Positions 5,304 through 39,645 of a stretch of 44,158 bases of DNA are shown here, piece by piece. The position numbers and the translations under genes were made by a program. This DNA is from a virus: IMG/VR virus record IMGVR_UViG_3300031998_000219, positions 1 to 44,158 of that record. The stretch is one strand, 5' to 3'. The notes beneath the pieces are model-generated. The model saw nothing but the letters and a program-made list of their open reading frames with translations, was not told the DNA's origin and made no database searches. Numbering within the stretch: position 1 is the stretch's first letter; every line of letters begins with the position of its first letter.

Positions 5304-5453
5304 TTACTTCAAACCCAAAGATTCTTTTGCCACATCCATTCCTCGCAATACGCCCTTTTGGAATGCGTCGCACAACATCCGGGTTATACTCTCAATGTAA
5401 GGTCCGCAAACCTTTTGCATTTCTTCGTTTGTTTTTCTAATTGATTTGTCCAT
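5304..5453 (-). CDS. Small hypothetical protein, 49 aa (below the ORF-track cutoff)
   Basis: MDKSIRKTNEEMQKVCGPYIESITRMLCDAFQKGVLRGMDVAKESLGLK, preceded by the recurrent context ATACAGGCGATATG. Confidence 0.45.
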   Translation of the reverse strand: MDKSIRKTNEEMQKVCGPYIESITRMLCDAFQKGVLRGMDVAKESLGLK

Positions 5454-5468
5454 ATCGCCTGTATTTAG

Positions 5469-5672
5469 TTAAACGTTTTCAATCTTTGTGGTACGGAAAG
5501 AACCAATTTCATAATCGGCCGTTTCGTGCATTACCTGTACGCCCGCCAAATCCGGGTCGTTTGCTTTGATTTGCTTTGCGTACTCAACCGCCTTTGCGTG
5601 GTCGTGGAAAATTCTTCCATCAACGATGTTATCTTCCAAACCGCCGGGGCATAAAACAATTTTGTAAATCAT
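5469..5672 (-). CDS. Hypothetical protein, 67 aa
   Basis: Intact ORF. It is preceded by leader hairpin copy E. Confidence 0.5.
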   Translation of the reverse strand: MIYKIVLCPGGLEDNIVDGRIFHDHAKAVEYAKQIKANDPDLAGVQVMHETADYEIGSFRTTKIENV

Positions 5673-5692
5673 AATGTGTTGTATTTAAGTTT

Positions 5693-5708
5693 CCGGGAAT
5701 CGGCCCGG
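5693..5708 (-). promoter_or_regulatory. Leader stem-loop copy E (stem CCGGG/CCCGG, loop CCGATT on the RNA strand)
   Basis: Same architecture as the hairpins at 6439-6454, 13857-13872, 14558-14573 and 16272-16287. It lies 20 nt upstream of the ATG at 5672 and directly after tRNA-Glu. Confidence 0.5.
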
Positions 5709-5718
5709 TCCGGGTTTG

Positions 5719-5790
5719 TAGTCGGTGCGGGAATCGAACCCGCATTACGGGAATGAAAATCCCGTGTCCTAACCGTTAGACTAACCGGCC
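5719..5790 (-). tRNA. tRNA-Glu (anticodon UUC)
   Basis: Folded by hand: acceptor GGCCGGU/ACCGACU (one C-A mismatch), D-arm GUCU/GGAC, anticodon stem CGGGA/UCCCG with loop UUUUCAU. It has a 4-nt variable loop, as in bacterial tRNA-Glu, and T-arm GCGGG-UUCGAUU-CCCGC. No CCA is encoded. Confidence 0.85.
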
Positions 5791-5799
5791 AATCTGTTG

Positions 5800-5883
5800 T
5801 GGCTTTTCCGGGAATCGAACCCGGACCCCTGTAATGGGACGAATGTTTGGGATTCGCGCGTTTACCAATTTCGCCAAAAAGCC
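5800..5883 (-). tRNA. tRNA-Leu (anticodon CAA), type II with long variable arm
   Basis: Acceptor GGCUUUU/AAAAGCC, anticodon stem CGAAU/AUUCG with loop CCCAAAC, long variable arm (CCC..GGG) and T-arm CCGGG-UUCGAUU-CCCGG. Position 33 reads C rather than the near-universal U. Confidence 0.75.
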
Positions 5884-5965
5884 ATTTTCGGGGTTAGACG
5901 TTTCGCAACGTTTCGCCCCTGTGATTATTTTTATGTTTAAATCATTATAAGGCCGTTGAGCCTTG

Positions 5966-6036
5966 ATGCGCCGCCGGGATTCGAACCCGGAATACAAGTG
6001 CCAAAAACTTGTGTGTTACCGTTACACCACGGCGCA
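5966..6036 (-). tRNA. tRNA-Gln (anticodon UUG)
   Basis: Acceptor UGCGCCG/CGGCGCA with the U1-A72 pair typical of bacterial tRNA-Gln. D-arm GUGU/ACAC, anticodon stem CAAGU/ACUUG with loop UUUUGGC, T-arm CCGGG-UUCGAAU-CCCGG. Confidence 0.85.
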
Positions 6037-6042
6037 ATGTTT

Positions 6043-6420
6043 TTAATCAATTCTTCTCCAATCCAAATTTTTGAAACTGAAACGTTTTTCGGTGCGCTTG
6101 ATATAGAATGCGCGAACGAAATCCGGTTCATATTCTTTGGTTAAATCGCCACGTTTTACACCTCTTTCCAATGTTTGTGAACAATCGTTCAATTCATCCA
6201 ATGAACTCTTGCCGTAACATTCGTATTTGTTTGTTATCACAAACATTGTTGAACCAACCGGCATTTCCTTTATATCATCCAAAACGTTACAGAAACGGCC
6301 CAAAAAACCGGGGTGCATAGCCTGTTCGGTAAAAAGGAAAGAACGCATTTGGCGGAAACCCTCTTTGTCTGCGTTCCATATTAATGCCGTTCCATTCTCA
6401 ATAAAAAGTTTGTGTGTCAT
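6043..6420 (-). CDS. Hypothetical protein, 125 aa, first gene of a unit that also carries the three tRNAs
   Basis: Start moved to MTHKLFIENG (context AAAGCGATATG). The 22 codons upstream in the ORF track are the promoter-leader cassette. The stop lies 7 nt from the tRNA-Gln 5' end. Confidence 0.6.
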   Translation of the reverse strand: MTHKLFIENGTALIWNADKEGFRQMRSFLFTEQAMHPGFLGRFCNVLDDIKEMPVGSTMFVITNKYECYGKSSLDELNDCSQTLERGVKRGDLTKEYEPDFVRAFYIKRTEKRFSFKNLDWRRID

Positions 6421-6522
6421 ATCGCTTTGTATTTGGTCCCGGGAACCCGCCCGGTCGGTCAGATTCGCAACCGAATCCGAATGCAAATATAAGCATACTT
6501 TTTTATGTGCAATAACTTTTGA
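6421..6522 (-). promoter_or_regulatory. Promoter-leader cassette A
   Basis: Minus strand reads AAAGTTATTGC (-33 region, 6509-6516), 18 nt, then TATATTTG (-7, 6491-6484). This is followed by hairpin GATTCG/CGAATC (6462-6477), hairpin CCGGG/CCCGG with loop CGGGTT (6439-6454), an 18-nt spacer and the ATG. Homologous to cassettes B, C and D. Confidence 0.65.
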
Positions 6523-6723
6523 TTATTTTTTTTCGGAAAATTGCAAAATTTTTTGCGGGTCGCTTATTTCCGGATACCAATTCACGGTTCCGTTGGCCAA
6601 CGCCCGGGCAAACGCTTTGTCCGTTTCTTTATGTTGGCCCAATTCGAACCACCATTTATGTTTGGCGCGTTTACACATTATGCGATAACCGCCCAATATC
6701 TTTTTAACGTATGCGTCAACCAT
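6523..6723 (-). CDS. Hypothetical protein, 66 aa
   Basis: ATG overlaps the upstream stop (ATGGTTGA). Its 3' end (..PQKILQFSEKK) is the part of cassette A that recurs in degenerate form in cassettes C and D. Confidence 0.5.
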   Translation of the reverse strand: MVDAYVKKILGGYRIMCKRAKHKWWFELGQHKETDKAFARALANGTVNWYPEISDPQKILQFSEKK

Positions 6724-6982
6724 TTTGTATTTCTCTTTTGAAATAGGCCCGGGAACCATAACACGTTACAAGTTCCCAACCCTTTGCGCCTAAATCGTGA
6801 AACATTTTGTGTTCGGTTTCCAAACCCAAACCGTCCAATTTCATAATCTTGTATTCCCATTGTGTTTTGGGTTCCATCCCTTGTTCTTTTGTATCGCGGA
6901 ATAATGGATGGGTACATTTGAAATCCGCCCGAAATGATTTGCAATAATCTTTCATTTCGCAATCATTACATTTGTTACTCAT
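6716..6982 (-). CDS. Cys-rich N-terminus plus DUF4177-like C-terminal domain, 88 aa
   Basis: WEYKIMKLDGLGLETEHKMFHDLGAKGWELV resembles the DUF4177 pattern (WEYK.....G.....L...LN.LG.eGWELV). Start context GGCGATATG. Confidence 0.5.
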   Translation of the reverse strand: MSNKCNDCEMKDYCKSFRADFKCTHPLFRDTKEQGMEPKTQWEYKIMKLDGLGLETEHKMFHDLGAKGWELVTCYGSRAYFKREIQNG

Positions 6983-6993
6983 ATCGCCTTTTG

Positions 6994-9058: not shown

Positions 9059-9822
9059 TCCGACATCATTTTAAGATATTCCATTGCGTCCGGGTCAATA
9101 CCGCCGGGGTTGTTCAATTTATGTAATTTGCCGCTTTCCATATCCTTACGCATAAAGTTACGGGCCGTTGCAATCCAATCACGTTTCTTTGCGCCTTTAC
9201 TTGCGGACCAATCCGAAACGACGTGGTAATAATATACGATGTCAACGCCGTTAAATTCCGGCGAATTGAATTCGGCCGCAAACAACTTATAATCTGCATA
9301 TTTTGAATTCTCAAATATACATAAATTTTCCGATGTACGACGTGGACGGGTAACGGTTATTGGCTCAAATTCGGGTTGACCGTCAAACAAACCGCCATCG
9401 GCGGGTTTATTATTATCAGTAAGTGAAACGGATTGTTCTTTATTAGTATTTATTAGTTGCGGGTTTTCCGTAAACGGGTTTTCCGTATGCGGCTTTTCCG
9501 CGTTCGGATTTTCAACATTGGCAAATTCCGCAACGTCTGAAATTATGTAATCGTATCCGGAAAACATACCGTGTTTGTCGCGTACCTCTGTTCGTTTGCA
9601 ATAACCCAATTCGATTAACTCTTTGATTCCGTTATTGGTGGCGTCGCGTCCATCCTTGGCGTGTTTCTTTAATTCGGAAAGATTCAAATTCCAATCGTCC
9701 GGTAAACTCATAACATATATGATTATTCCTTTGGCTTTCCAACTCAATCGTTGGTCCCGGATAAAATCATTGTTTACCGCCGTAAAATTGCCTTTATGTT
9801 TTGTTCTTTGTATCGAATCCAT
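9055..9822 (-). CDS. Replication initiator / replisome organiser-like winged-helix protein, 255 aa
   Basis: FTAVNNDFIRDQRLSWKAKGIIIYVMSLPDDWNLNLSELKKHAKDGRDATNNGIKELIELGYCKR matches the N-terminal pattern of DnaD/phage replisome-organiser proteins. Start placed at the ATG with TTGATATG context; the track's GTG start at 9861 lies inside a structured leader. Confidence 0.6.
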   Translation of the reverse strand: MDSIQRTKHKGNFTAVNNDFIRDQRLSWKAKGIIIYVMSLPDDWNLNLSELKKHAKDGRDATNNGIKELIELGYCKRTEVRDKHGMFSGYDYIISDVAEFANVENPNAEKPHTENPFTENPQLINTNKEQSVSLTDNNKPADGGLFDGQPEFEPITVTRPRRTSENLCIFENSKYADYKLFAAEFNSPEFNGVDIVYYYHVVSDWSASKGAKKRDWIATARNFMRKDMESGKLHKLNNPGGIDPDAMEYLKMMSE

Positions 9823-9938
9823 ATCAAAAGAAATTCCCGAATTTTGGGCCACCACAACCACAAAATCCGGGAATCTTTTGCCCCATCCGGGGCGTTTGTA
9901 TCCTATCCGTTGGTGGTGGTCAACGCTTTATGTCGTTG

Positions 9939-9972
9939 CAAATATAGATATTATTTGTATTCGGGAAACAAA
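9939..9972 (-). promoter_or_regulatory. Promoter for the replication genes (-7 box TATATTTG, possible TTTG -33 at 22-nt spacing)
   Basis: Minus strand has TATATTTG at 9946-9939, immediately after the stop of the upstream gene, and TTTG at 9972-9969. Confidence 0.5.
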
Positions 9973-10346
9973 ATCGGATTATTTTTTATCAGTTCGTCCA
10001 ATTCGTTTTTGGCCTGTTCCGCCCTATCGTATGCGCCCGGATTGAACAGACGCACACGGGGTTGTTTGTTGGCAATTTCTTTCAGTTCGGCGGCCTTGCG
10101 GTATGGCTCAATCCAATACCGTTTGATGCGGATTTGTTCGCCGTACCTGTTGATAACTTGCAATCTTTCCCGGCTGATTGGAACACCGATGTTTTCCAAT
10201 TCGCTTAACCTTGCGGATAATCGGTAAATACCCAAATCGTTCAACGCTTCTAAACTTGTTATCTTTTGGCCTGTCTTGAAAAAGGCCATTAAACGTTTCT
10301 TTTGAGATTCGGTTGCGGTTACGTTTTCGTTGTTGTTCATAATCAT
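9951..10346 (-). CDS. Winged-helix/HTH DNA-binding protein, 131 aa
   Basis: KITSLEALNDLGIYRLSARLSELENIGVPI resembles the HTH_36/39-type pattern (t..eA....gi.rLaaRI.eL...G..I). Confidence 0.5.
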   Translation of the reverse strand: MIMNNNENVTATESQKKRLMAFFKTGQKITSLEALNDLGIYRLSARLSELENIGVPISRERLQVINRYGEQIRIKRYWIEPYRKAAELKEIANKQPRVRLFNPGAYDRAEQAKNELDELIKNNPILFPEYK

Positions 10347-11062: not shown

Positions 11063-12291
11063 ATTTCAATATCTAAATTCAACAAATCAGTCTTTGCCGC
11101 CATCGGTTCCGGGTCGGCTTTCGGTAAATTTTCCGTGTTTTGCCCTGTATTCGATTTTCTTTCGTCTGACGTGGGTTTGGACGGGCGCGAACTTTTCGTG
11201 GCTCTGACGGCCTTATTTGGGGCCGAATCGGGTGCGTTGTCCGAATCTTTGGATTCCGGGGATTTTATACCCAATGCCTTTTCCGCGGATTCGATTTCTT
11301 CTTTGGTTATTGTCGGGGCGTTGGCCGCCTGTTCCGGGGTGTCTTTTTTGTCCCTCTTTGTCTTTATCAGTTCGGCCAATGACAGATTCAACAAATTATC
11401 CTCAATCTTGCCGTTATCCAAATCCAATTGGCCTTGCACGATGGTAAACGTGTTGTCTCTCTTTGCATCTTCGATGGCGGCCAAATCTAACAAATACGGA
11501 ATCTTCTTGGCATTCACGGAATCCGTTTGGTCTTTTAAATTGTATGACGGGGCCTTGCGCCAATCCTTGGGACTGAAATTGAACAACTTTTGTATCGGCT
11601 TTTCCGGGCAATACACATCCCACATCATTTTGTACAAATGCAATTGGATTTCGTGTTCCTCGTAAAATCCTTTGCGCCCGCTTTTGAAATCCACGATGGC
11701 GGTAAAGGTTTCGGCCGTCTTGGGGTTCGTCATTTCGCACGGCAAATCAAGACATCCGGCATAATGGTATTCGGGATGTACCAACGCGATTTCAACGGCC
11801 AACGGTTTTACGTTCCAATCCTTGACGAATTGGGCGAACGCCAACACGTCTTTGCGTATTGTAACCAACCAATCGCCAAACACCTTATCCGGCAAATTGT
11901 TCCGTTCCATATAATCCAACAGAACACCCGGTACGGCGTCGAAATCGTAATGGCGGTTGATTATCAGTTCTTCGAATTGGGCGTGCATAAACGTACCGTA
12001 TGCGGCCGCCAAATCCCTTTTTTCCGTCGAACCCTCTTTGCCATTGGCGGCAATCCAATCCAATAACGCGGGTGGGGTCGGCATTACCTGTTTCAACAAT
12101 GTAGTTACGGACGGGTAAAATTCCGGGTTGCCGTTGGCGTCGAACCGGTAATAATAACGGTGGCCGTCCGAATTCAATTGATAAACTTTGTATGGCGGTT
12201 CTTTCAACGCATCAGCATTGAAAAACAACGCCGTCATTTCTTCCACGGTCATTCCCGGGAACAACTCTTTTGTCGTGTCTTTTGTTTCCAT
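11059..12291 (-). CDS. PD-(D/E)XK (RecB/Cas4-type) exonuclease with a long disordered C-terminal tail, 410 aa
   Basis: Motifs GCLDL, IVDFKSG (D-x-K) and QLHLY (QxxxY) occur in canonical order. The last ~110 aa are low-complexity K/S/P/E/A. Start context ATACAGGCGATATG. Confidence 0.7.
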   Translation of the reverse strand: METKDTTKELFPGMTVEEMTALFFNADALKEPPYKVYQLNSDGHRYYYRFDANGNPEFYPSVTTLLKQVMPTPPALLDWIAANGKEGSTEKRDLAAAYGTFMHAQFEELIINRHYDFDAVPGVLLDYMERNNLPDKVFGDWLVTIRKDVLAFAQFVKDWNVKPLAVEIALVHPEYHYAGCLDLPCEMTNPKTAETFTAIVDFKSGRKGFYEEHEIQLHLYKMMWDVYCPEKPIQKLFNFSPKDWRKAPSYNLKDQTDSVNAKKIPYLLDLAAIEDAKRDNTFTIVQGQLDLDNGKIEDNLLNLSLAELIKTKRDKKDTPEQAANAPTITKEEIESAEKALGIKSPESKDSDNAPDSAPNKAVRATKSSRPSKPTSDERKSNTGQNTENLPKADPEPMAAKTDLLNLDIEM

Positions 12292-12303
12292 ATCGCCTGT
12301 ATG

Positions 12304-13383: not shown

Positions 13384-13839
13384 TTACTTGTTATTCATCA
13401 TTCTTTCCATAAAGGTATGTTCAAATTGTTCCATTACCTGTTGGCGTTTCTCTTTCTTGAATTGCTCAAAACAATTCTCAACCAAAGTTTTAGACATCGC
13501 TTCAATTTCTTTGGCAAATTGTGAATTATCGGATGAATAATACCCGGTTTTATACGCAAATCGGTTCTTTATCCATTCTTCAATTGAATAATCTTTGCCA
13601 TCAAGTCTAAACTTGATTTCTTTGGCGGCTTTTTTGATACACTTTGAAACCTCTTTTTTAAATGTTGTTTCAATGTAATTTGTTACCTGTCTTTGGATTT
13701 CCTTTACAATGTCGGTATTTAACTTCTCTGTTAAACCCCTCTTAACCTCGTTCAAGATTAAACGTTTGAATTCTTCTTTTGCACTATCTTCGTTGTAATC
13801 AAAGAATTCGCCTAAATCAATTTCAATTGTTCCTTTCAT
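13384..13839 (-). CDS. Hypothetical Lys/Glu-rich protein, 151 aa
   Basis: Intact ORF directly downstream of promoter-leader cassette B. Start context AAAGCGATATG. Confidence 0.6.
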   Translation of the reverse strand: MKGTIEIDLGEFFDYNEDSAKEEFKRLILNEVKRGLTEKLNTDIVKEIQRQVTNYIETTFKKEVSKCIKKAAKEIKFRLDGKDYSIEEWIKNRFAYKTGYYSSDNSQFAKEIEAMSKTLVENCFEQFKKEKRQQVMEQFEHTFMERMMNNK

Positions 13840-13925
13840 ATCGCTTTGTCTTTAATCCCGGAACCCGCCGGGTCGGTGTTGCAAAGTTAGTTATTATTTC
13901 TTTATGTGCAATAACTTTCGGTTTA
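13840..13925 (-). promoter_or_regulatory. Promoter-leader cassette B
   Basis: Minus strand reads AAAGTTATTGC (13908-13915), 19 nt, then TAACTTTG (13889-13882). This is followed by hairpin CCCGG/CCGGG with loop CGGGTT (13857-13872), a 17-nt spacer and the ATG. Confidence 0.65.
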
Positions 13926-13942
13926 ATTTCTTCGATTGTGTC

Positions 13943-14284
13943 TTATTGCATCCGTTGATGCAACAACGTCTTTATCGCCGTGAACGCCTGTTCGTTGGCC
14001 TTGTATTCATCAAACGTGCAATCGGCAATGAAATCATCCAAACGCTTGTACAGGTTTTCGACCTGTTGCCGGGCCATCGCGTGGCGCGTTACGCCCATAT
14101 CATCCGTGAATCCCTTGCGTACATAACCGTTGGTTGTCATAATGGTTTCCGCATCTTCGAACGAACCTTTGGTAAAGTAACGTTGTTCGAAATAGACATC
14201 GTAAAAGGTTTGGCCGTAATCGTTGCGGAATTCCTGTATTCGCGCTTCTTTGTTGTTCTTGGGGTTTATGTAATTGTATCGCAT
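13943..14284 (-). CDS. Hypothetical protein, 113 aa
   Basis: Intact ORF with start context CCGATATG. Confidence 0.55.
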   Translation of the reverse strand: MRYNYINPKNNKEARIQEFRNDYGQTFYDVYFEQRYFTKGSFEDAETIMTTNGYVRKGFTDDMGVTRHAMARQQVENLYKRLDDFIADCTFDEYKANEQAFTAIKTLLHQRMQ

Positions 14285-14300
14285 ATCGGTAAATGGTAAT

Positions 14301-14318
14301 GGCCCCGTTTCCGGGGCC
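14301..14318 (-). terminator. GC hairpin GGCCCCG-GAAA-CGGGGCC (GNRA loop) between two genes
   Basis: 7-bp perfect stem, 9 nt after the stop at 14327 and 17 nt before the next ATG. With no U-tract, it could be an attenuator, a processing site or a stabiliser. Confidence 0.45.
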
Positions 14319-14326
14319 GTGGGTTA

Positions 14327-14539
14327 TCAATTAAGTTCAACGGTTATTTTTGCCACGATGTAACCATCTTTTACAACAAAACAGGAATACGGGTTTTCGG
14401 TGTCGTTGATGGCGTATGTTACGCTTTTGTAACCTCTTTGTGCGCGGTGGATTTCCTTGTAATAGTTATCAGCATTGAAAACGGTTATTTCGCGGTAACT
14501 CTTTGACTTTTCCGGGTTGCTGAAATTAAATGTTGTCAT
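14327..14539 (-). CDS. Hypothetical protein, 70 aa
   Basis: Start moved to MTTFNFSN (AAAGCGATATG context). The upstream part of the track ORF is cassette C. The N-terminus resembles that of the 16019-16258 gene (MTTLNYT). Confidence 0.55.
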   Translation of the reverse strand: MTTFNFSNPEKSKSYREITVFNADNYYKEIHRAQRGYKSVTYAINDTENPYSCFVVKDGYIVAKITVELN

Positions 14540-14640
14540 ATCGCTTTCATTTTTGTTCGCGGAACCGCCCGCGTGCGTTGGATTCACAACTGAATCCATT
14601 GCAAATATCAGCATTTATTTTTATTCCGCAATAACTTTTA
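14540..14640 (-). promoter_or_regulatory. Promoter-leader cassette C
   Basis: Minus strand reads AAAGTTATTGC (14628-14635), 19 nt, then GATATTTG (14609-14602). This is followed by hairpin GGATTC/GAATCC (14580-14597), hairpin CGCGG/CCGCG with loop GCGGTT (14558-14573), an 18-nt spacer and the ATG. Confidence 0.6.
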
Positions 14641-14706
14641 CTTATTATTTTTACTGAAAATGCAACTTTTTTTCTGAATCGCGCCCACAACACGTTTAAA
14701 CGGGGT

Positions 14707-14714
14707 TATCTTTG
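14707..14714 (+). promoter_or_regulatory. Plus-strand -7 box TATCTTTG upstream of the only plus-strand ORF
   Basis: Perfect TAnnTTTG match 27 nt upstream of the ATG at 14742. No convincing -33 box. Confidence 0.4.
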
Positions 14715-14741
14715 CGGGGTAAACCAATAAATTTTTCAATT

Positions 14742-14876
14742 ATGCCCGTACACAAAACAAATAGTGGTTACAAATTCGGGGAATCCGGCAAAACCTATCC
14801 CACCCGTGCGCAAGCGGAACAACAGGCCCGCGCAATTTACGCATCCGGATACAGGGAAAAAGACAAACGCAAATGA
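14742..14876 (+). CDS. Small basic protein, 44 aa, the only plus-strand gene candidate
   Basis: MPVHKTNSGYKFGESGKTYPTRAQAEQQARAIYASGYREKDKRK has ATTATG start context, sits in an otherwise non-coding gap, and is followed by a plus-oriented intrinsic terminator. Confidence 0.5.
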   Translation: MPVHKTNSGYKFGESGKTYPTRAQAEQQARAIYASGYREKDKRK

Positions 14877-14966
14877 AATAGGGGAAATTTACCACTAATT
14901 ACCGCTAATTTCCTATATTTGCATCGTCTTTTTACCATCATATCGCCTGTATCGGTATTTTGACGG

Positions 14967-14997
14967 CCGCCCCGGATTCGTTCGGGGCGGTTTTATT
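14967..14997 (+). terminator. Plus-strand intrinsic terminator (CCGCCCCG-8 nt-CGGGGCGG followed by TTTTATT)
   Basis: 8-bp GC stem with the T-tract only on the plus strand. It lies just after the stop of the minus-strand gene 14993-15523. Confidence 0.6.
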
Positions 14998-15523
14998 CAT
15001 TCATTTGGCGAATCGCGGCCGCCCGTATCGAATCGTGTTTTAACCAATAATCGTATTGGTACAAATTCCCGTAATGGCCCGTTTCCAACAGGTAACGGCG
15101 CAACGTATCCGGTTCCAACTCAATCAACGATGCGTACAATTCTTTGCGCACGTCCAAATGGCACGCACGTTCAAACGTGGGGTCAATATAGCGGTCCCCG
15201 TATTTAACGAATGCGTGTTCGATTGGGAACATACAATATGCGTAACCCTCAATGTATCGCACCGATTCCGGGAACAACCAATCGGCCCGTTCCATCAAAA
15301 ACACCAATTCGGCCGCGTTCCTGTAACATTGCTTTTGTTGGGCGTGGTAAAACCCTTTGATGAATTCAAGTTGTTTCGCCGTCAGAACGTCACGCATACG
15401 TTCGCATTGGACCGGGCGGCAATCCTTTACAATTTGTTCGAAATACGATTGTTGTTCCCGGCCCCATTTTAATTGCGTCATTCCCTTTAATTGTTCGATG
15501 ATGGGGTTTTCCTGTTCGTTCAT
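14993..15523 (-). CDS. Hypothetical protein, 176 aa
   Basis: Intact ORF with start context AGGATATG. No motif recognised. Confidence 0.6.
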   Translation of the reverse strand: MNEQENPIIEQLKGMTQLKWGREQQSYFEQIVKDCRPVQCERMRDVLTAKQLEFIKGFYHAQQKQCYRNAAELVFLMERADWLFPESVRYIEGYAYCMFPIEHAFVKYGDRYIDPTFERACHLDVRKELYASLIELEPDTLRRYLLETGHYGNLYQYDYWLKHDSIRAAAIRQMNE

Positions 15524-15726
15524 ATCCTGTTGGTTCGGTTAGAATAATCCCTTATTGTATCTTCGCTGATACCCAAATCGAAAGTCCTGTTAATACGGCG
15601 CAACAATTCCAATTTGGGTTCTATTTCATCGGTTGAATACAACCCCATATTCCACGCGGGTAAATCGTTCAGTTGGAAAACCTGTTCCCGGACGAATTGT
15701 TTTAATGATTCCTTTGTTACTTCCAT
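15520..15726 (-). CDS. Hypothetical protein, 68 aa
   Basis: Start moved to MEVTKESLK (AAAGCGATATG context), downstream of the hairpin at 15743-15760. Confidence 0.5.
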   Translation of the reverse strand: MEVTKESLKQFVREQVFQLNDLPAWNMGLYSTDEIEPKLELLRRINRTFDLGISEDTIRDYSNRTNRI

Positions 15727-15742
15727 ATCGCTTTTGTGTTGT

Positions 15743-15760
15743 GGCCGGGTTGCCCCGGCC
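15743..15760 (-). terminator. GC hairpin GGCCGGG-GCAA-CCCGGCC (GNRA loop) between two genes
   Basis: 7-bp perfect stem, 7 nt after the stop at 15767 and 16 nt before the ATG at 15726. No U-tract. Confidence 0.45.
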
Positions 15761-15766
15761 GGGTTA

Positions 15767-15982
15767 TTATCTGATAAAGTCCATTTGTCCCAATAATGTG
15801 TATGATACCGCGTAATCATCAACGTTTACACCGAAACGCGGAATGTTCAAGTTAATACAGGTGGGAGCCAAAAAGAATTGTTTATTATCCGGCGTGCGCC
15901 ATGATGTAAACATTGCACCATTCAACGATTTAGTTGCCATCTTTTCAAATGTGCCAATGGCTTCGCGTGTTGCCTTTTTCAT
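15767..15982 (-). CDS. Hypothetical protein, 71 aa
   Basis: Intact ORF with start context ACAGATATG. Confidence 0.5.
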   Translation of the reverse strand: MKKATREAIGTFEKMATKSLNGAMFTSWRTPDNKQFFLAPTCINLNIPRFGVNVDDYAVSYTLLGQMDFIR

Positions 15983-16018
15983 ATCTGTATGGTTTATAGG
16001 TTTGACAATAAGATTAAA

Positions 16019-16258
16019 TCAATGGCAGTAGAACGAAATTATAATGCCGCGGCGAAGCCGACAAACGCATTTGTCAAGCGGGCAATCAAAAGCGCGGTCC
16101 AACAAACGGTTTGTTAATTCAATGTCAGCAACCAAACGGAGCAGTCCGGAAACACCCACCAATGTATTGATTTTCTTACCCTCATAAAGTCCCGAAACCT
16201 TAATTTTGAATTCGCGGTTGATTTGGCGGGTTGTGTAATTTAACGTTGTCATTTTCAT
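16019..16258 (-). CDS. Hypothetical protein, 79 aa
   Basis: Start moved to MKMTTLNYTTRQ. The upstream part of the track ORF is cassette D. Confidence 0.5.
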   Translation of the reverse strand: MKMTTLNYTTRQINREFKIKVSGLYEGKKINTLVGVSGLLRLVADIELTNRLLDRAFDCPLDKCVCRLRRGIIISFYCH

Positions 16259-16351
16259 TCCTGTTTGTGTTTGCGGAACCGGCCGCATCCGTCGTGGTTT
16301 CATCATCAACCACATTGCAAATATCGGTATTATTTTTTATTGCGCAATAGT
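16259..16351 (-). promoter_or_regulatory. Promoter-leader cassette D
   Basis: Minus strand reads AAACTATTGC (16344-16351), spacer, then GATATTTG (16325-16318). This is followed by hairpin GTGGTT/AACCAC (16295-16314), hairpin UGCGG/CCGCA with loop CCGGTT (16272-16287), a spacer and the ATG. Confidence 0.6.
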
Positions 16352-16406
16352 TTTTACTTATTTTTTTGCGGAAAAATGAAAATTTCTTTTGAATCGGCTT
16401 TTTGTG

Positions 16407-16487
16407 TACCTTTGGGGCGATACATACATAGATAATCACTCATTATAGAACGGGGCCGGATGCGAATTCGCCCCCGTTTTGTTTGTT
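16407..16487 (+). ncRNA. Candidate ~65-nt plus-strand small RNA (-7 box TACCTTTG to intrinsic terminator)
   Basis: TACCTTTG at 16407-16414 occupies the position homologous to the plus-strand box at 14707. It is followed by no ORF, then hairpin AACGGGG...CCCCGTT (16449-16478) and TTTTGTTTGTT. Confidence 0.3.
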
Positions 16488-34497: not shown

Positions 34498-34518
34498 CCG
34501 GATTGACCCTTTACCCGG
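34498..34518 (-). promoter_or_regulatory. Late-leader hairpin copy 1 (stem CCGGG/UCCGG, loop UAAAGGGUCAA)
   Basis: Lies exactly 32 nt upstream of the capsid ATG. The identical 11-nt loop and the same spacing recur at 38858-38878. Confidence 0.55.
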
Positions 34519-38159: not shown

Positions 38160-38825
38160 TCAAGCGGGGATAAGGTCGGTAAGCGGGTTAAAGTCTGTGG
38201 GTTTGATGATTTCCAAATCGTCCGAATAGTTATCGGGATACATCCAAGAAATGGCGTTGGAATCCTTTGCGTCAAAGTTTCCGTGAATCTTGGAACCGAT
38301 GAACAACGAACGTATGGGAATGGGATAATATGTGTTGGGTTCTGTTTGGTCCTGTATGGCTTCGATGTTGCCGTTTTCGTCAAACAGGTAAACACCCAAG
38401 TTACCGGCATTGGCTTCGCATTCCAATTCTTTCATAACCTTTATGACAGATTGGGGAATGGCACGCAATACGCCGTCAAATTGAACGGGGTTGCCGCCCA
38501 ATACTTCTGCAATACCGCCCAAATCATCGTTGCCACCACTTGAACGGCGTGCGTCGCCGCCACTATCGGCCGGGGCATTGATGTAAGGAGAAATAACGAT
38601 TTTTGAACCGTTGGTTGCGGCCATCTTTGCGGTCCAACTTGCCAACAAATTGATTGTCGGGGTTGTGGGGGTTCCGCTTGCGGCGGCAAAACTATTGCGT
38701 GTGCCGTCGGCTTGACGCAATCTTTGGAACGCTACTTTTTGAATTTGGCCGAAATTTTCCGGGCATTGCACGTTGGGAATGGTGCTGATTGCGGATGCGG
38801 CCGGGCATTGACATACTAAACTCAT
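38160..38825 (-). CDS. Probable abundant virion protein, 221 aa (major tail protein candidate)
   Basis: It has its own -7 box and the same leader hairpin and 32-nt spacing as the capsid gene. No motif recognised, so the role is inferred. Confidence 0.5.
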   Translation of the reverse strand: MSLVCQCPAASAISTIPNVQCPENFGQIQKVAFQRLRQADGTRNSFAAASGTPTTPTINLLASWTAKMAATNGSKIVISPYINAPADSGGDARRSSGGNDDLGGIAEVLGGNPVQFDGVLRAIPQSVIKVMKELECEANAGNLGVYLFDENGNIEAIQDQTEPNTYYPIPIRSLFIGSKIHGNFDAKDSNAISWMYPDNYSDDLEIIKPTDFNPLTDLIPA

Positions 38826-38857: not shown

Positions 38858-38878
38858 CGCGGTTGACCCTTTACCGCA
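38858..38878 (-). promoter_or_regulatory. Late-leader hairpin copy 2 (stem UGCGG/CCGCG, loop UAAAGGGUCAA)
   Basis: Lies exactly 32 nt upstream of the ATG at 38825. The stem covaries relative to copy 1 while the loop is identical. Confidence 0.55.
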
Positions 38879-38994: not shown

Positions 38995-39645
38995 TTAGTC
39001 ATTTTTCTTTCCTCTCTGTTTATATGAATAAACAATCGCACATCTTCGACAACAAAACAAACGGTCCGGGGCAGACGGTTTGGGTTTTCCAAATTTAAAA
39101 GGTTTCCCACATTCTTTACATATTCCATCATATTGCAATATTTTGGTTCTGTATTTTGCGCCGCAATTATCAGAACAAAACATTGCGTCGTGATGGGATG
39201 CAAGAAATGTTTTGCCACATTGTTTACAAATACATTCAAACCGTGGGGAATAATCCATTTGTTGCGCGTGTTTACTATGCCACTCCCGGCCATCCTTACT
39301 TTTGTGCCATTCTTTTGCCTTTTCGGACGCTTTGAGCAAATCGGCCTTATTCTTTCGCCTGTATTCTTCATTATTAAAACTTTTTTTGGCGTGTTTGCTT
39401 AAATGTTCCGATATTGGCATACATTCCAAATTGGATATATCATTATTGAACGTGTTACCGTCTTTGTGGTGTATGCAATAACCTTTGGGAACTTTACGTT
39501 TATTGTGATACTCCCATATAGCAACGTGTAAACCTTTTGCGTGTTTACGCCCGGCGTTTGTATTTGATTGGCTCAAATAGTATTTACCCGCGCCCATCAA
39601 TTTGTAATCAACGCCATTAAATCTAATTATTTGCGGTATTTCCAT
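38995..39645 (-). CDS. Free-standing HNH endonuclease with C-terminal zinc ribbons, 216 aa
   Basis: LHVAIWEYHNKRKVPKGYCIHHKDGNTFNNDISNLECMPISEHLSKH is an HNH_3-type motif. CKQCGK...CSDNCG and CKECGK...CCRRC are zinc-ribbon pairs. Start placed at MEIPQIIRF, downstream of its own -7 box. Confidence 0.8.
   Translation of the reverse strand: MEIPQIIRFNGVDYKLMGAGKYYLSQSNTNAGRKHAKGLHVAIWEYHNKRKVPKGYCIHHKDGNTFNNDISNLECMPISEHLSKHAKKSFNNEEYRRKNKADLLKASEKAKEWHKSKDGREWHSKHAQQMDYSPRFECICKQCGKTFLASHHDAMFCSDNCGAKYRTKILQYDGICKECGKPFKFGKPKPSAPDRLFCCRRCAIVYSYKQRGKKND

Follow-up and report, generated by a model that had tools for sequence, protein, structure and literature searches.

Start-codon-spaced hairpins with covarying stems in siphoviruses of gut Bacteroidales

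Results

A short GC-rich hairpin recurs just upstream of start codons in IMGVR_UViG_3300031998_000219, an IMG/VR virus record of which we analyzed positions 1 to 44,158 (this whole stretch of 44,158 nt is referred to as the window). Five copies, here termed class-1 hairpins, have a 5-bp stem and a 6-nt loop and lie on the minus strand, which also encodes nearly all long open reading frames (ORFs) of the window. Judged by compensatory changes among related phages, the class-1 helix is real and under selection. We tentatively read it as a structural 5' boundary of translation-initiation regions that lack a Shine-Dalgarno sequence.

Class-1 hairpins in the window

The five hairpins are given below, with distances counted from the 3' end of the hairpin to the ATG of the downstream ORF.

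6439..6454, minus strand: class-1 hairpin CCGGG-CGGGTT-CCCGG, 18 nt to the ATG at 6420
13857..13872, minus strand: class-1 hairpin CCCGG-CGGGTT-CCGGG, 17 nt to the ATG at 13839
14558..14573, minus strand: class-1 hairpin CGCGG-GCGGTT-CCGCG, 18 nt to the ATG at 14539
16272..16287, minus strand: class-1 hairpin TGCGG-CCGGTT-CCGCA, 19 nt to the ATG at 16252, which opens a gene for a 77-aa early protein
5693..5708, minus strand: class-1 hairpin CCGGG-CCGATT-CCCGG, 20 nt to the ATG at 5672, located 9 nt past tRNA-Glu and without a promoter

A first-pass annotation, made from the letters of the window alone, had listed these five sequences and their spacing to the start codon; each was found in place, on the minus strand and letter for letter, at the measured distances shown. 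As it had also observed, the stems vary yet stay complementary, three of the five pairs differing between copies (CCGGG/CCCGG, CCCGG/CCGGG, CGCGG/CCGCG and TGCGG/CCGCA). Scanning the window for perfect 5-bp stems around an SSGRTT loop returned exactly these five hairpins on the minus strand and one on the plus strand (9970-9985, AT-rich and unrelated), a total of 6, where 300 dinucleotide-preserving shuffles averaged 0.47 and never exceeded 4. All five class-1 hairpins are present in the predicted centroid folds, with the spacer to the AUG open. Energy z-scores of the leaders were unremarkable, as expected of small hairpins.

Base-pairing among related phages

Megablast of 20 kb of the window against GenBank phages returned no close DNA relative; the phage was placed by protein search instead. 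PHROG matches included portal, large terminase, tape measure, head proteins and exonuclease. Portal identity was 67–68% to Bacteroides phages BKO1-3, Parabacteroides phage PDS1, Alistipes phage AS73P1 and Bacteroides phage C1_85S2P, 61% to Elizabethkingia phage TCUEAP2 and ~50% to Bacteroides fragilis siphoviruses. Based on these matches and identities, the window (43.7% G+C) is assigned to a siphovirus of gut Bacteroidales related to PDS1 and BKO1-3.

We collected 80 related loci that surround exonuclease-gene homologues and searched them, together with the window and PDS1, using a covariance model that was built as a sequence-only model from the five window copies so as not to fit structure. 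The search yielded 169 matches, every one of them on the coding strand, which agrees with the RNA-sense orientation proposed in the first-pass annotation. The same bias was seen with the anchor GG-N4-TT-CC, for which the three outer stem positions were all Watson-Crick 132 times on the coding strand compared to 21 times on the other strand. Pairing was then counted in an alignment of the best 150 of the 169 matches (74 distinct rows). Standard pairs filled 98.9% of stem cells versus 87.5% after shuffling, and double-sided changes occurred at all five stem pairs. Cells carrying a double change numbered 27, compared to 4.1 ± 1.7 in shuffles, a value reached by none of 500 shuffles, and the covariation score was 0.277 versus at most 0.045 when the partner was slid by 1–3 columns. 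Asymmetry between G-U and A-C cells, as a test of the RNA strand, gave 7 sense-strand cells and 2–3 antisense-wobble cells, which are too few to decide.

Individual sites illustrate how the stems have changed. At the orthologous site 5' of the 77-aa protein gene (16019-16252, minus strand, preceded by the hairpin at 16272..16287), at least seven Watson-Crick stems are found across phages: TGCGG/CCGCA in the window and CGGGG/CCCCG, CCGGG/CCCGG, CTGGG/CCCAG, CGCGG/CCGCG, CCCGG/CCGGG and AGCAG/CTGCT in relatives. Occasional single mismatches are also seen at this site, as are the G-U forms CGGGG/CCTCG and CGGGG/TCCCG. Another site displays a stepwise series from CCGGG/CCCGG through the intermediate CCGGG/CCCAG to the compensated CTGGG/CCCAG. 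The varied stems at the orthologous site and the excess of double changes bear out the earlier suggestion of a selected structure rather than plain repetition, and the covariation anticipated once homologues were collected is present.

Flanks, loop and spacer

From 100 distinct instances we derived the consensus aaaaa-a-c-C-G-A, CCGGG, CGggTT, CCCGG, a-A, with an A-rich spacer after it; in shorthand this reads A-rich-CSGA-[CCGGG-CGKKTT-CCCGG]-AA. Variation is lowest in the 5' flank C-S-G-A, in the T at loop position 5 and in the two GG/CC pairs next to the loop, and loop positions 3-4 switch between G and T (CGGGTT, CGTTTT). The SSGRTT loop first described is accurate for the five window copies but not for the family, where the consensus is CGKKTT. 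Conservation also extends beyond the hairpin as originally drawn, taking in four 5'-flanking nucleotides (C-S-S-A) and, on the 3' side, A(A).

6455..6458, minus strand: conserved 5' flank CCGA (C 74%, G 74% and A 79% in the 100 distinct instances)
13873-13876, 14574-14577, 16288-16291 and 5709-5712, minus strand: equivalent C-S-S-A flanks
6418..6438, minus strand: A-rich spacer and ATG, predicted to be unpaired
13837-13856, 14537-14557, 16250-16271 and 5670-5692, minus strand: equivalent spacers with ATG

Three of the five class-1 segments of spacer and ATG terminate in GCGATATG. More generally, GCGAT precedes start codons in the window, where GCGATATG occurs 11 times (10 on the coding strand) compared to 1.78 expected, with minus-strand sites at, for example, 5451-5458, 6418-6425, 6980-6987, 12289-12296, 13837-13844 and 15724-15731. 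GCGAT-ATG looks like a family-specific start context that is also used at genes without a hairpin.

Across the 66 gene-start hairpins counted in the census below, spacers are mostly ~45–70% A and 10–30% T and contain no GGAGG-like Shine-Dalgarno element; such A-rich spacers fit published Bacteroidetes initiation regions. No U-tract follows the class-1 hairpin, and because its 3' flank is never T-rich among the 100 distinct instances, it does not appear to be an intrinsic terminator. A GC-rich inverted repeat in intergenic DNA could in principle be a terminator or attenuator hairpin, or else a palindromic operator acting at the DNA level, and in T4-type phages the PeSL cassettes, which combine a host-type early promoter with a lineage-specific stem-loop, do carry a functional terminator (Arbiol et al. 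2010, PMC2839356; Comeau et al. 2014, PMC4122927). Against this, the 3' flank of the class-1 hairpin is A-rich, four copies sit between a promoter and its gene, and canonical terminators with a hairpin and T-run are found elsewhere in the window (14966-14990 and 16452-16474, plus strand). A protein-bound palindrome, for its part, would be expected to keep its half-site sequence rather than covary among sites within one genome. We therefore regard both possibilities as extremely improbable.

Hairpins with other loops at the same position

The five copies first reported are the full set for class 1 but not for gene-start hairpins overall, as the window holds two more that belong to a second class.

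14301..14318, minus strand: class-2 hairpin GGCCCCG-GAAA-CGGGGCC, after the stop of the gene at 14327-14539, 16 nt to the ATG at 14284 (z = -2.75)
15743..15760, minus strand: class-2 hairpin GGCCGGG-GCAA-CCCGGCC, after TAATAACCC, 16 nt to the ATG at 15726

Class-2 hairpins have a 7–8-bp stem (for example, GCCGGGG/CCCCGGC) and a loop that is either GNRA (GAAA, GCAA or GGAA) or TTCGT. They lie 5–8 nt past a stop codon (TAATAACC) and 15–17 nt from the next ATG, and also occur in PDS1, BKO1-3 and the closest relative (L002). Among the 15 genomes of the group, none follows a promoter.

To place both classes in context, a census was taken of all GC-rich hairpins in these 15 genomes, counting only ATGs that open an ORF of at least 40 codons. 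On the sense strand, 66 of 318 distinct GC hairpins ended 15–22 nt from such an ATG compared to 5 of 331 on the antisense strand, and the neighboring bins held 9 (10–14 nt) and 4 (23–30 nt). The 66 comprise 29 class-1 hairpins and 37 with other loops, many of which are class 2. The fixed spacing holds among 33 non-homologous downstream genes, in line with the retention of distance noted at first pass. Bacteroides fragilis phage vB_BfrS_23 has the same layout with other hairpins (GTGGGG-ATAATA-CCCCAC and others), 15–17 nt from the ATG. Because unrelated loops and the vB_BfrS_23 hairpins occupy the same place, the common denominator is position plus helix rather than loop. The idea that a conserved loop sets the position is contradicted by the same data, since GAAA, GCAA, TTCGT and other loops stand at that position within the same genomes.

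The spacing also touches on annotation in PDS1 (locus L081), where the annotated starts of gp_5 and gp_30 (1886/1952 and 16098/16068) misfit the distance between hairpin and ATG. For both genes, an ATG 17–20 nt past the hairpin appears the likelier true start.

Upstream contexts

The features that precede the hairpins of the window are listed below.

6484..6491, minus strand: putative -7 box TATATTTG of a Bacteroidetes-type promoter
13882-13889, minus strand: equivalent putative -7 box TAACTTTG
14602-14609 and 16318-16325, minus strand: equivalent putative -7 boxes GATATTTG
6462..6478, 14580-14597 and 16294-16313, minus strand: optional AT-rich leader hairpin between -7 box and class-1 hairpin
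5718..5790, minus strand: tRNA-Glu (ARAGORN), directly upstream of the fifth copy

Four of the five window copies lie downstream of a putative promoter of the TTG...TAnnTTTG type, two of the four having GAnnTTTG; we take these boxes to be of the Bacteroidetes type on the basis of the published consensus. The AT-rich leader hairpin is present in three of the four promoter cassettes, with stems that differ and remain complementary, and is absent at 13857 and 5693. Analogous AT-rich leader hairpins are seen in relatives (for example, GTTGAAAGTTCAAC). Many copies in relatives, like the fifth window copy, have no -7 box. Overall, class-1 hairpins are found 19–30 nt past a -7 box, often with the AT-rich hairpin between, ~11 nt past a stop codon or ~10 nt past a tRNA. 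The first-pass proposal that the hairpin is separable from the promoter thus gains support beyond the one case on which it was based, the fifth copy, where a gap of 9 nt to tRNA-Glu and no promoter were seen.

These contexts bear on a possible role in mRNA processing or stability. Polycistronic or tRNA-linked transcripts would undergo cleavage in the A-rich stretches next to the hairpin, and the GC stem would guard against 3' exonucleases acting on the upstream cistron, against 5'-end-dependent decay of the downstream one, or against both, in the manner of intercistronic REP-like hairpins and 5' stabilizers. Class-2 hairpins, 5–8 nt past stop codons, occupy the classical site of a 3' protective hairpin, class-1 hairpins past tRNAs lie where RNase processing must happen, and A-rich single-stranded flanks are present on both sides, of which CSGA could be a cleavage signal. 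Stable stems are also predicted, a class-1 copy folding at ~-8.5 kcal/mol and a class-2 hairpin at ~-13 kcal/mol or below. Past promoters, however, 12–30 nt that are unpaired or separately folded lie 5' of the gene-start hairpin, and a second hairpin frequently sits closer to the 5' end, so that the gene-start hairpin would not be 5'-terminal unless the RNA is processed, and its spacing is tied to the ATG and not to the transcript start. We consider this role unlikely, though a serious contender.

The proximity to tRNAs raises a separate resemblance. The T-arm of tRNA-Leu (5799-5883, minus strand), CCGGG-TTCGATT-CCCGG, differs from the fifth copy by one deletion and one substitution, and YGATT loops are found in all three tRNA-adjacent copies (in the window, L002 and L003); this likeness may reflect coincidence or common origin. 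A tRNA T-arm has a 7-nt T-loop (TTCRANN) on a 5-bp stem. A T-arm or tRNA-like element was rejected as an identity for class 1, given a 6-nt loop that lacks T54 and A58 and a likeness to tRNA-Leu that is limited to the fifth copy. ARAGORN and the Rfam tRNA model found only three real tRNAs in the window. A pseudoknot between loop and spacer (GGUU/AACC), complementarity to the 16S 3' region and T-arm mimicry were dropped on inspection by eye, as each applied to some copies only or was sterically implausible.

Cassette joints

Clustering of the 120 nt on each side of the 169 instances gave 24 upstream and 33 downstream clusters in 46 combinations, with one upstream context joined to seven different genes. 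In alignments of such pairs, identity extends to the last base of the hairpin and then stops; conversely, one gene is found behind four upstream contexts. Between the window and L002, ORF replacements start just past the ATG and run as far as the next hairpin, and unrelated ORFs flank a homologous island of 45 nt (window 15765-15722) that comprises only a class-2 hairpin, its spacer and the ATG. No function was obtained from Pfam or PHROG for the genes downstream of the hairpins. Because phage homology breaks exactly at the hairpin or start codon, the element is, on this comparative evidence, a joint between exchangeable gene cassettes, an aspect overlooked in the first-pass annotation.

If exchange were its main business, the 22-nt module would be a recombination linker for ORFan cassettes, as the PeSLs of T4-type phages are, with no role in expression. 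The breakpoints at the hairpin, the 46 combinations, the replaced ORFs and 45-nt island shared with L002, and the presence of a phage-encoded exonuclease are all consistent with this. A linker needs identity and not a hairpin, however; this reading accounts neither for the compensatory changes and the strand bias nor for the constant spacing to non-homologous start codons, and diverged stems within one genome would lower the homology available. We view a pure linker as very unlikely.

Distribution

The exact class-1 core was found in at least 120 viral contigs, mostly 23–49 kb in length and from human-gut samples. TCUEAP2, a phage of a different host class, carries five or six class-1 copies and retains the leader TAnnTTTG-TCAAACAAAACAACGA-CGGGG-CGTTTT-CC(C/T)CG. 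The first 50 kb of crAss001 yielded no model matches and no hairpins at gene starts, and Bacteroides thetaiotaomicron plasmid p5482 (only 38 genes) no model matches and no GC hairpin 15–22 nt from starts. A 19-mer core searched against 185,579 species genomes (one genome per species) gave 18 matches in high-GC Actinobacteria and similar genomes and none in Bacteroidota; as these 18 are attributable to chance, no host or prophage copy is indicated. A 1,013-bp contig filed under Vibrio olivae (L213, NZ_JBHMEP010000052.1) contains the class-1 core and a homologue of the 77-aa protein, and is probably gut-phage contamination of that assembly.

At the gathering score, Rfam 15 identified only three tRNAs in the window, and E-value scans of 5600-6600 and 13780-16450 returned nothing credible, the single overlap with a hairpin being PyrR205 at E = 6.1. 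This agrees with the first-pass remark that no described motif was known to match the class-1 hairpin. We found no description of the motif in the literature, the PDS1 paper included, and the element is apparently undescribed.

A proposed boundary for translation initiation

The reading that we favor, while holding it tentatively, is that the hairpin forms the structural 5' boundary of an initiation region without a Shine-Dalgarno sequence. A cis-acting mRNA hairpin would mark the 5' edge of this region, placed as near to the start codon as the 30S subunit tolerates, and this fixed boundary or 'bumper' would leave a single-stranded, A-rich landing pad that is short and of constant length. We propose that with such a constant pad a gene would be expressed in the same way in any genomic context. 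The ~22-nt module (A-rich-CSGA-stem-CGKKTT-stem-AA), because it is repeated 5–8 times per genome, would additionally supply short homology for recombination of whole ORFs between phages.

This reading draws on the 5–8-bp GC stem kept by compensatory change, its location on the coding strand, the distance of 15–22 nt to the ATG irrespective of upstream context, the A-rich spacer predicted to be open, the lack of a U-tract and the breaks in homology at the hairpin or start codon. As reported by Yusupova et al. in 2001, the path of the mRNA on the 30S subunit extends to about -15. Bacteroidetes mRNAs lack a Shine-Dalgarno sequence and have, and need, an unpaired A-rich region from about -20 to +20 (PMC6847099). 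In Prevotella bryantii, a hairpin inserted at -21 was tolerated, with 1.34-fold reporter output, and hairpins starting at -14 to -18 lowered translation (Accetto & Avgustin 2011, PMC3155529).

Several observations weigh against a boundary function. Partition-function folding of 81 natural contexts gave a mean unpaired probability for the initiation region of 0.616 in the wild type, which fell to 0.598 when the hairpin was deleted and to 0.581 when its 5' arm was broken; these changes in accessibility of only 0.02–0.035 are statistically detectable and too small to matter, and insulation by the hairpin was rejected. Only seven window genes have a hairpin, a subset of those after an intergenic gap and all within 5.6–16.3 kb, so it is not a general requirement for initiation. 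As crAss001 and the B. thetaiotaomicron plasmid lack the arrangement, it would be a feature of the phage lineage and not a rule of the host. Genome compaction and a lower limit imposed by the ribosome could also together produce the tight spacing, in which case the hairpin would have some other purpose. Finally, the class-1 loop and flanks are kept even in the Elizabethkingia phage. This conservation across host classes suggests a partner that reads the sequence, since a structural role alone would be insufficient, and leaves room for a trans-acting partner for class 1.

Such a partner could be an RNA-binding protein, phage-encoded or conserved in hosts, for which the class-1 hairpin with its CSGA and AA flanks is the operator; bound there, it would occlude the landing pad and so control the translation of a set of early ORFan genes, much as T4 RegA and the T4 gene 43 operator do. 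Several observations are compatible with this. Sequence is conserved beyond pairing (5' CGA, closing GG/CC and CGKKTT with a near-invariant T5), also in the phage of another host class (61% portal identity), with the leader TCAAACAA-ACGA. The element is phage-specific, without Bacteroidota matches among the 185,579 species genomes, and is limited to a subset of genes. A 5-bp stem ending ~17 nt from the AUG resembles the T4 gene 43 operator, and the distance of 15–22 nt to the ATG gives the adjacency to the ribosome-binding region that is expected of an operator. Class 1 also co-occurs with the conserved 77-aa early protein, whose own gene has a copy in front of it. However, the same genomes place hairpins with unrelated loops at this position, part of the identity between copies is explicable by gene conversion and recombination at the joints, and no RNA-binding domain was detected with Pfam or PHROG in hairpin-adjacent genes or other scanned ORFs. 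We judge an operator to be improbable, yet plausible enough to be kept in view.

The 77-aa protein itself is 75–86% identical in >900 database proteins compared to 55% for the exonuclease, and is encoded by PDS1, BKO1-3 and TCUEAP2 and not by vB_BfrS_23. Its AlphaFold2 model is of high confidence (pLDDT 91.6). Neither Pfam nor PHROG gave a function, and the best match in a fold search against the PDB was not significant (E = 0.067, TM 0.35), so nothing can be said from its structure about this protein as the partner.

A further reading, which we consider distinctly unlikely, gives the hairpin an active part in selecting the start site on ribosomes that work without Shine-Dalgarno pairing. Barred from the mRNA exit channel, the GC helix would dock at the 30S platform as a ruler and thereby set an AUG 16–20 nt downstream in the P site. 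In Bacteroidota phages it would then have evolved as a structural replacement for the Shine-Dalgarno helix that makes gene starts portable and independent of context.

Other features of the window

A gene for an HNH endonuclease (38995-39645, minus strand) lies between those for the large terminase and a head protein. Two short hairpins (38863-38874 and 34503-34514, minus strand), with stems CGG/CCG and CCGG/CCGG, share the 12-nt loop GTAAAGGGTCAA; their 3' ends are 33–36 nt 5' of two head genes (ATG at 38825 and 34465), and they may represent a late-gene element. A long imperfect hairpin at 9834-9873 (minus strand; TTCCCGGATTTTG...CAAAATTCGGGAA) lies downstream of an TATATTTG promoter at 9946 and ends 11 nt 5' of the ATG at 9822, a position that would overlap the initiation region.

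Discussion

Among known systems, the gene-start hairpins can be compared to phage translational operators, which include those of T4 gene 43 and the MS2 and PP7 coat proteins as well as the targets of T4 RegA. They share with the first three a small hairpin (here, with a 5-bp stem) just 5' of or at the ribosome-binding region, and with RegA the potential control of many early mRNAs. All of these systems, however, are defined by a protein known to bind them; the gene 43, MS2 and PP7 operators occur as single copies and are autoregulatory, and RegA sites lack structure. In the phages studied here, hairpins with unrelated loops share the position. Lambda boxB, which is found twice per genome, has a GNRA-like pentaloop, is paired with boxA and has no positioning relative to start codons. 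The 5-bp GC stem, stems that covary between phages and a promoter-proximal location in early transcripts are all reminiscent of boxB and the nut site. We rejected this identity on account of the 6-nt CGKKTT loop and the 5–8 copies per genome, each 15–22 nt from an ATG. Hairpins that stabilize 5' ends, intercistronic stabilizers of the REP type and synthetic insulator hairpins act at RNA termini or without a fixed distance to the AUG. A stable stem at a cistron boundary could likewise protect RNA ends or give context-independent expression, but unlike insulator hairpins, the gene-start hairpin is predicted to insulate to a negligible degree.

The PeSL cassettes are also short, repeated regulatory units with a lineage-specific stem-loop. 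They contain a host-type early promoter, for which the putative -7 boxes of four of the five window copies may be a counterpart, and they too are found among ORFans in plastic regions, at breakpoints of insertion, deletion or replacement between related phages. Unlike the PeSL terminator, the gene-start hairpin has no U-tract, lies inside the leader past the promoter and also occurs without any promoter, and it keeps a fixed distance to a start codon in the absence of a Shine-Dalgarno sequence. Host phylum and promoter type also differ between the two, and PeSL mini-circles have been demonstrated experimentally, whereas the gene-start hairpins are known here from sequence. The hairpin insertions in P. 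bryantii (PMC3155529) involve the same host order and geometry, but as artificial constructs and not as a natural conserved motif.

These results bear on how start codons are chosen without Shine-Dalgarno pairing in Bacteroidota: a natural phage family places a stable helix 15–22 nt from dozens of unrelated starts, which is the distance at which the sole published insertion experiment found a hairpin to be tolerated. The element is defined, at 16–22 nt, and comes with natural compensatory variants, so that it lends itself to direct tests on purified 30S subunits and with reporters in Bacteroides or Parabacteroides. The position of the hairpin is useful for correcting start-codon annotation, as for PDS1 gp_5 and gp_30, and the hairpin may serve as a portable gene-start part for engineering gut Bacteroidales. 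Its association with cassette joints would extend cassette-mediated modular shuffling from T4-type coliphages to abundant siphoviruses of the human gut, and such shuffling could explain the turnover of their early ORFan genes.

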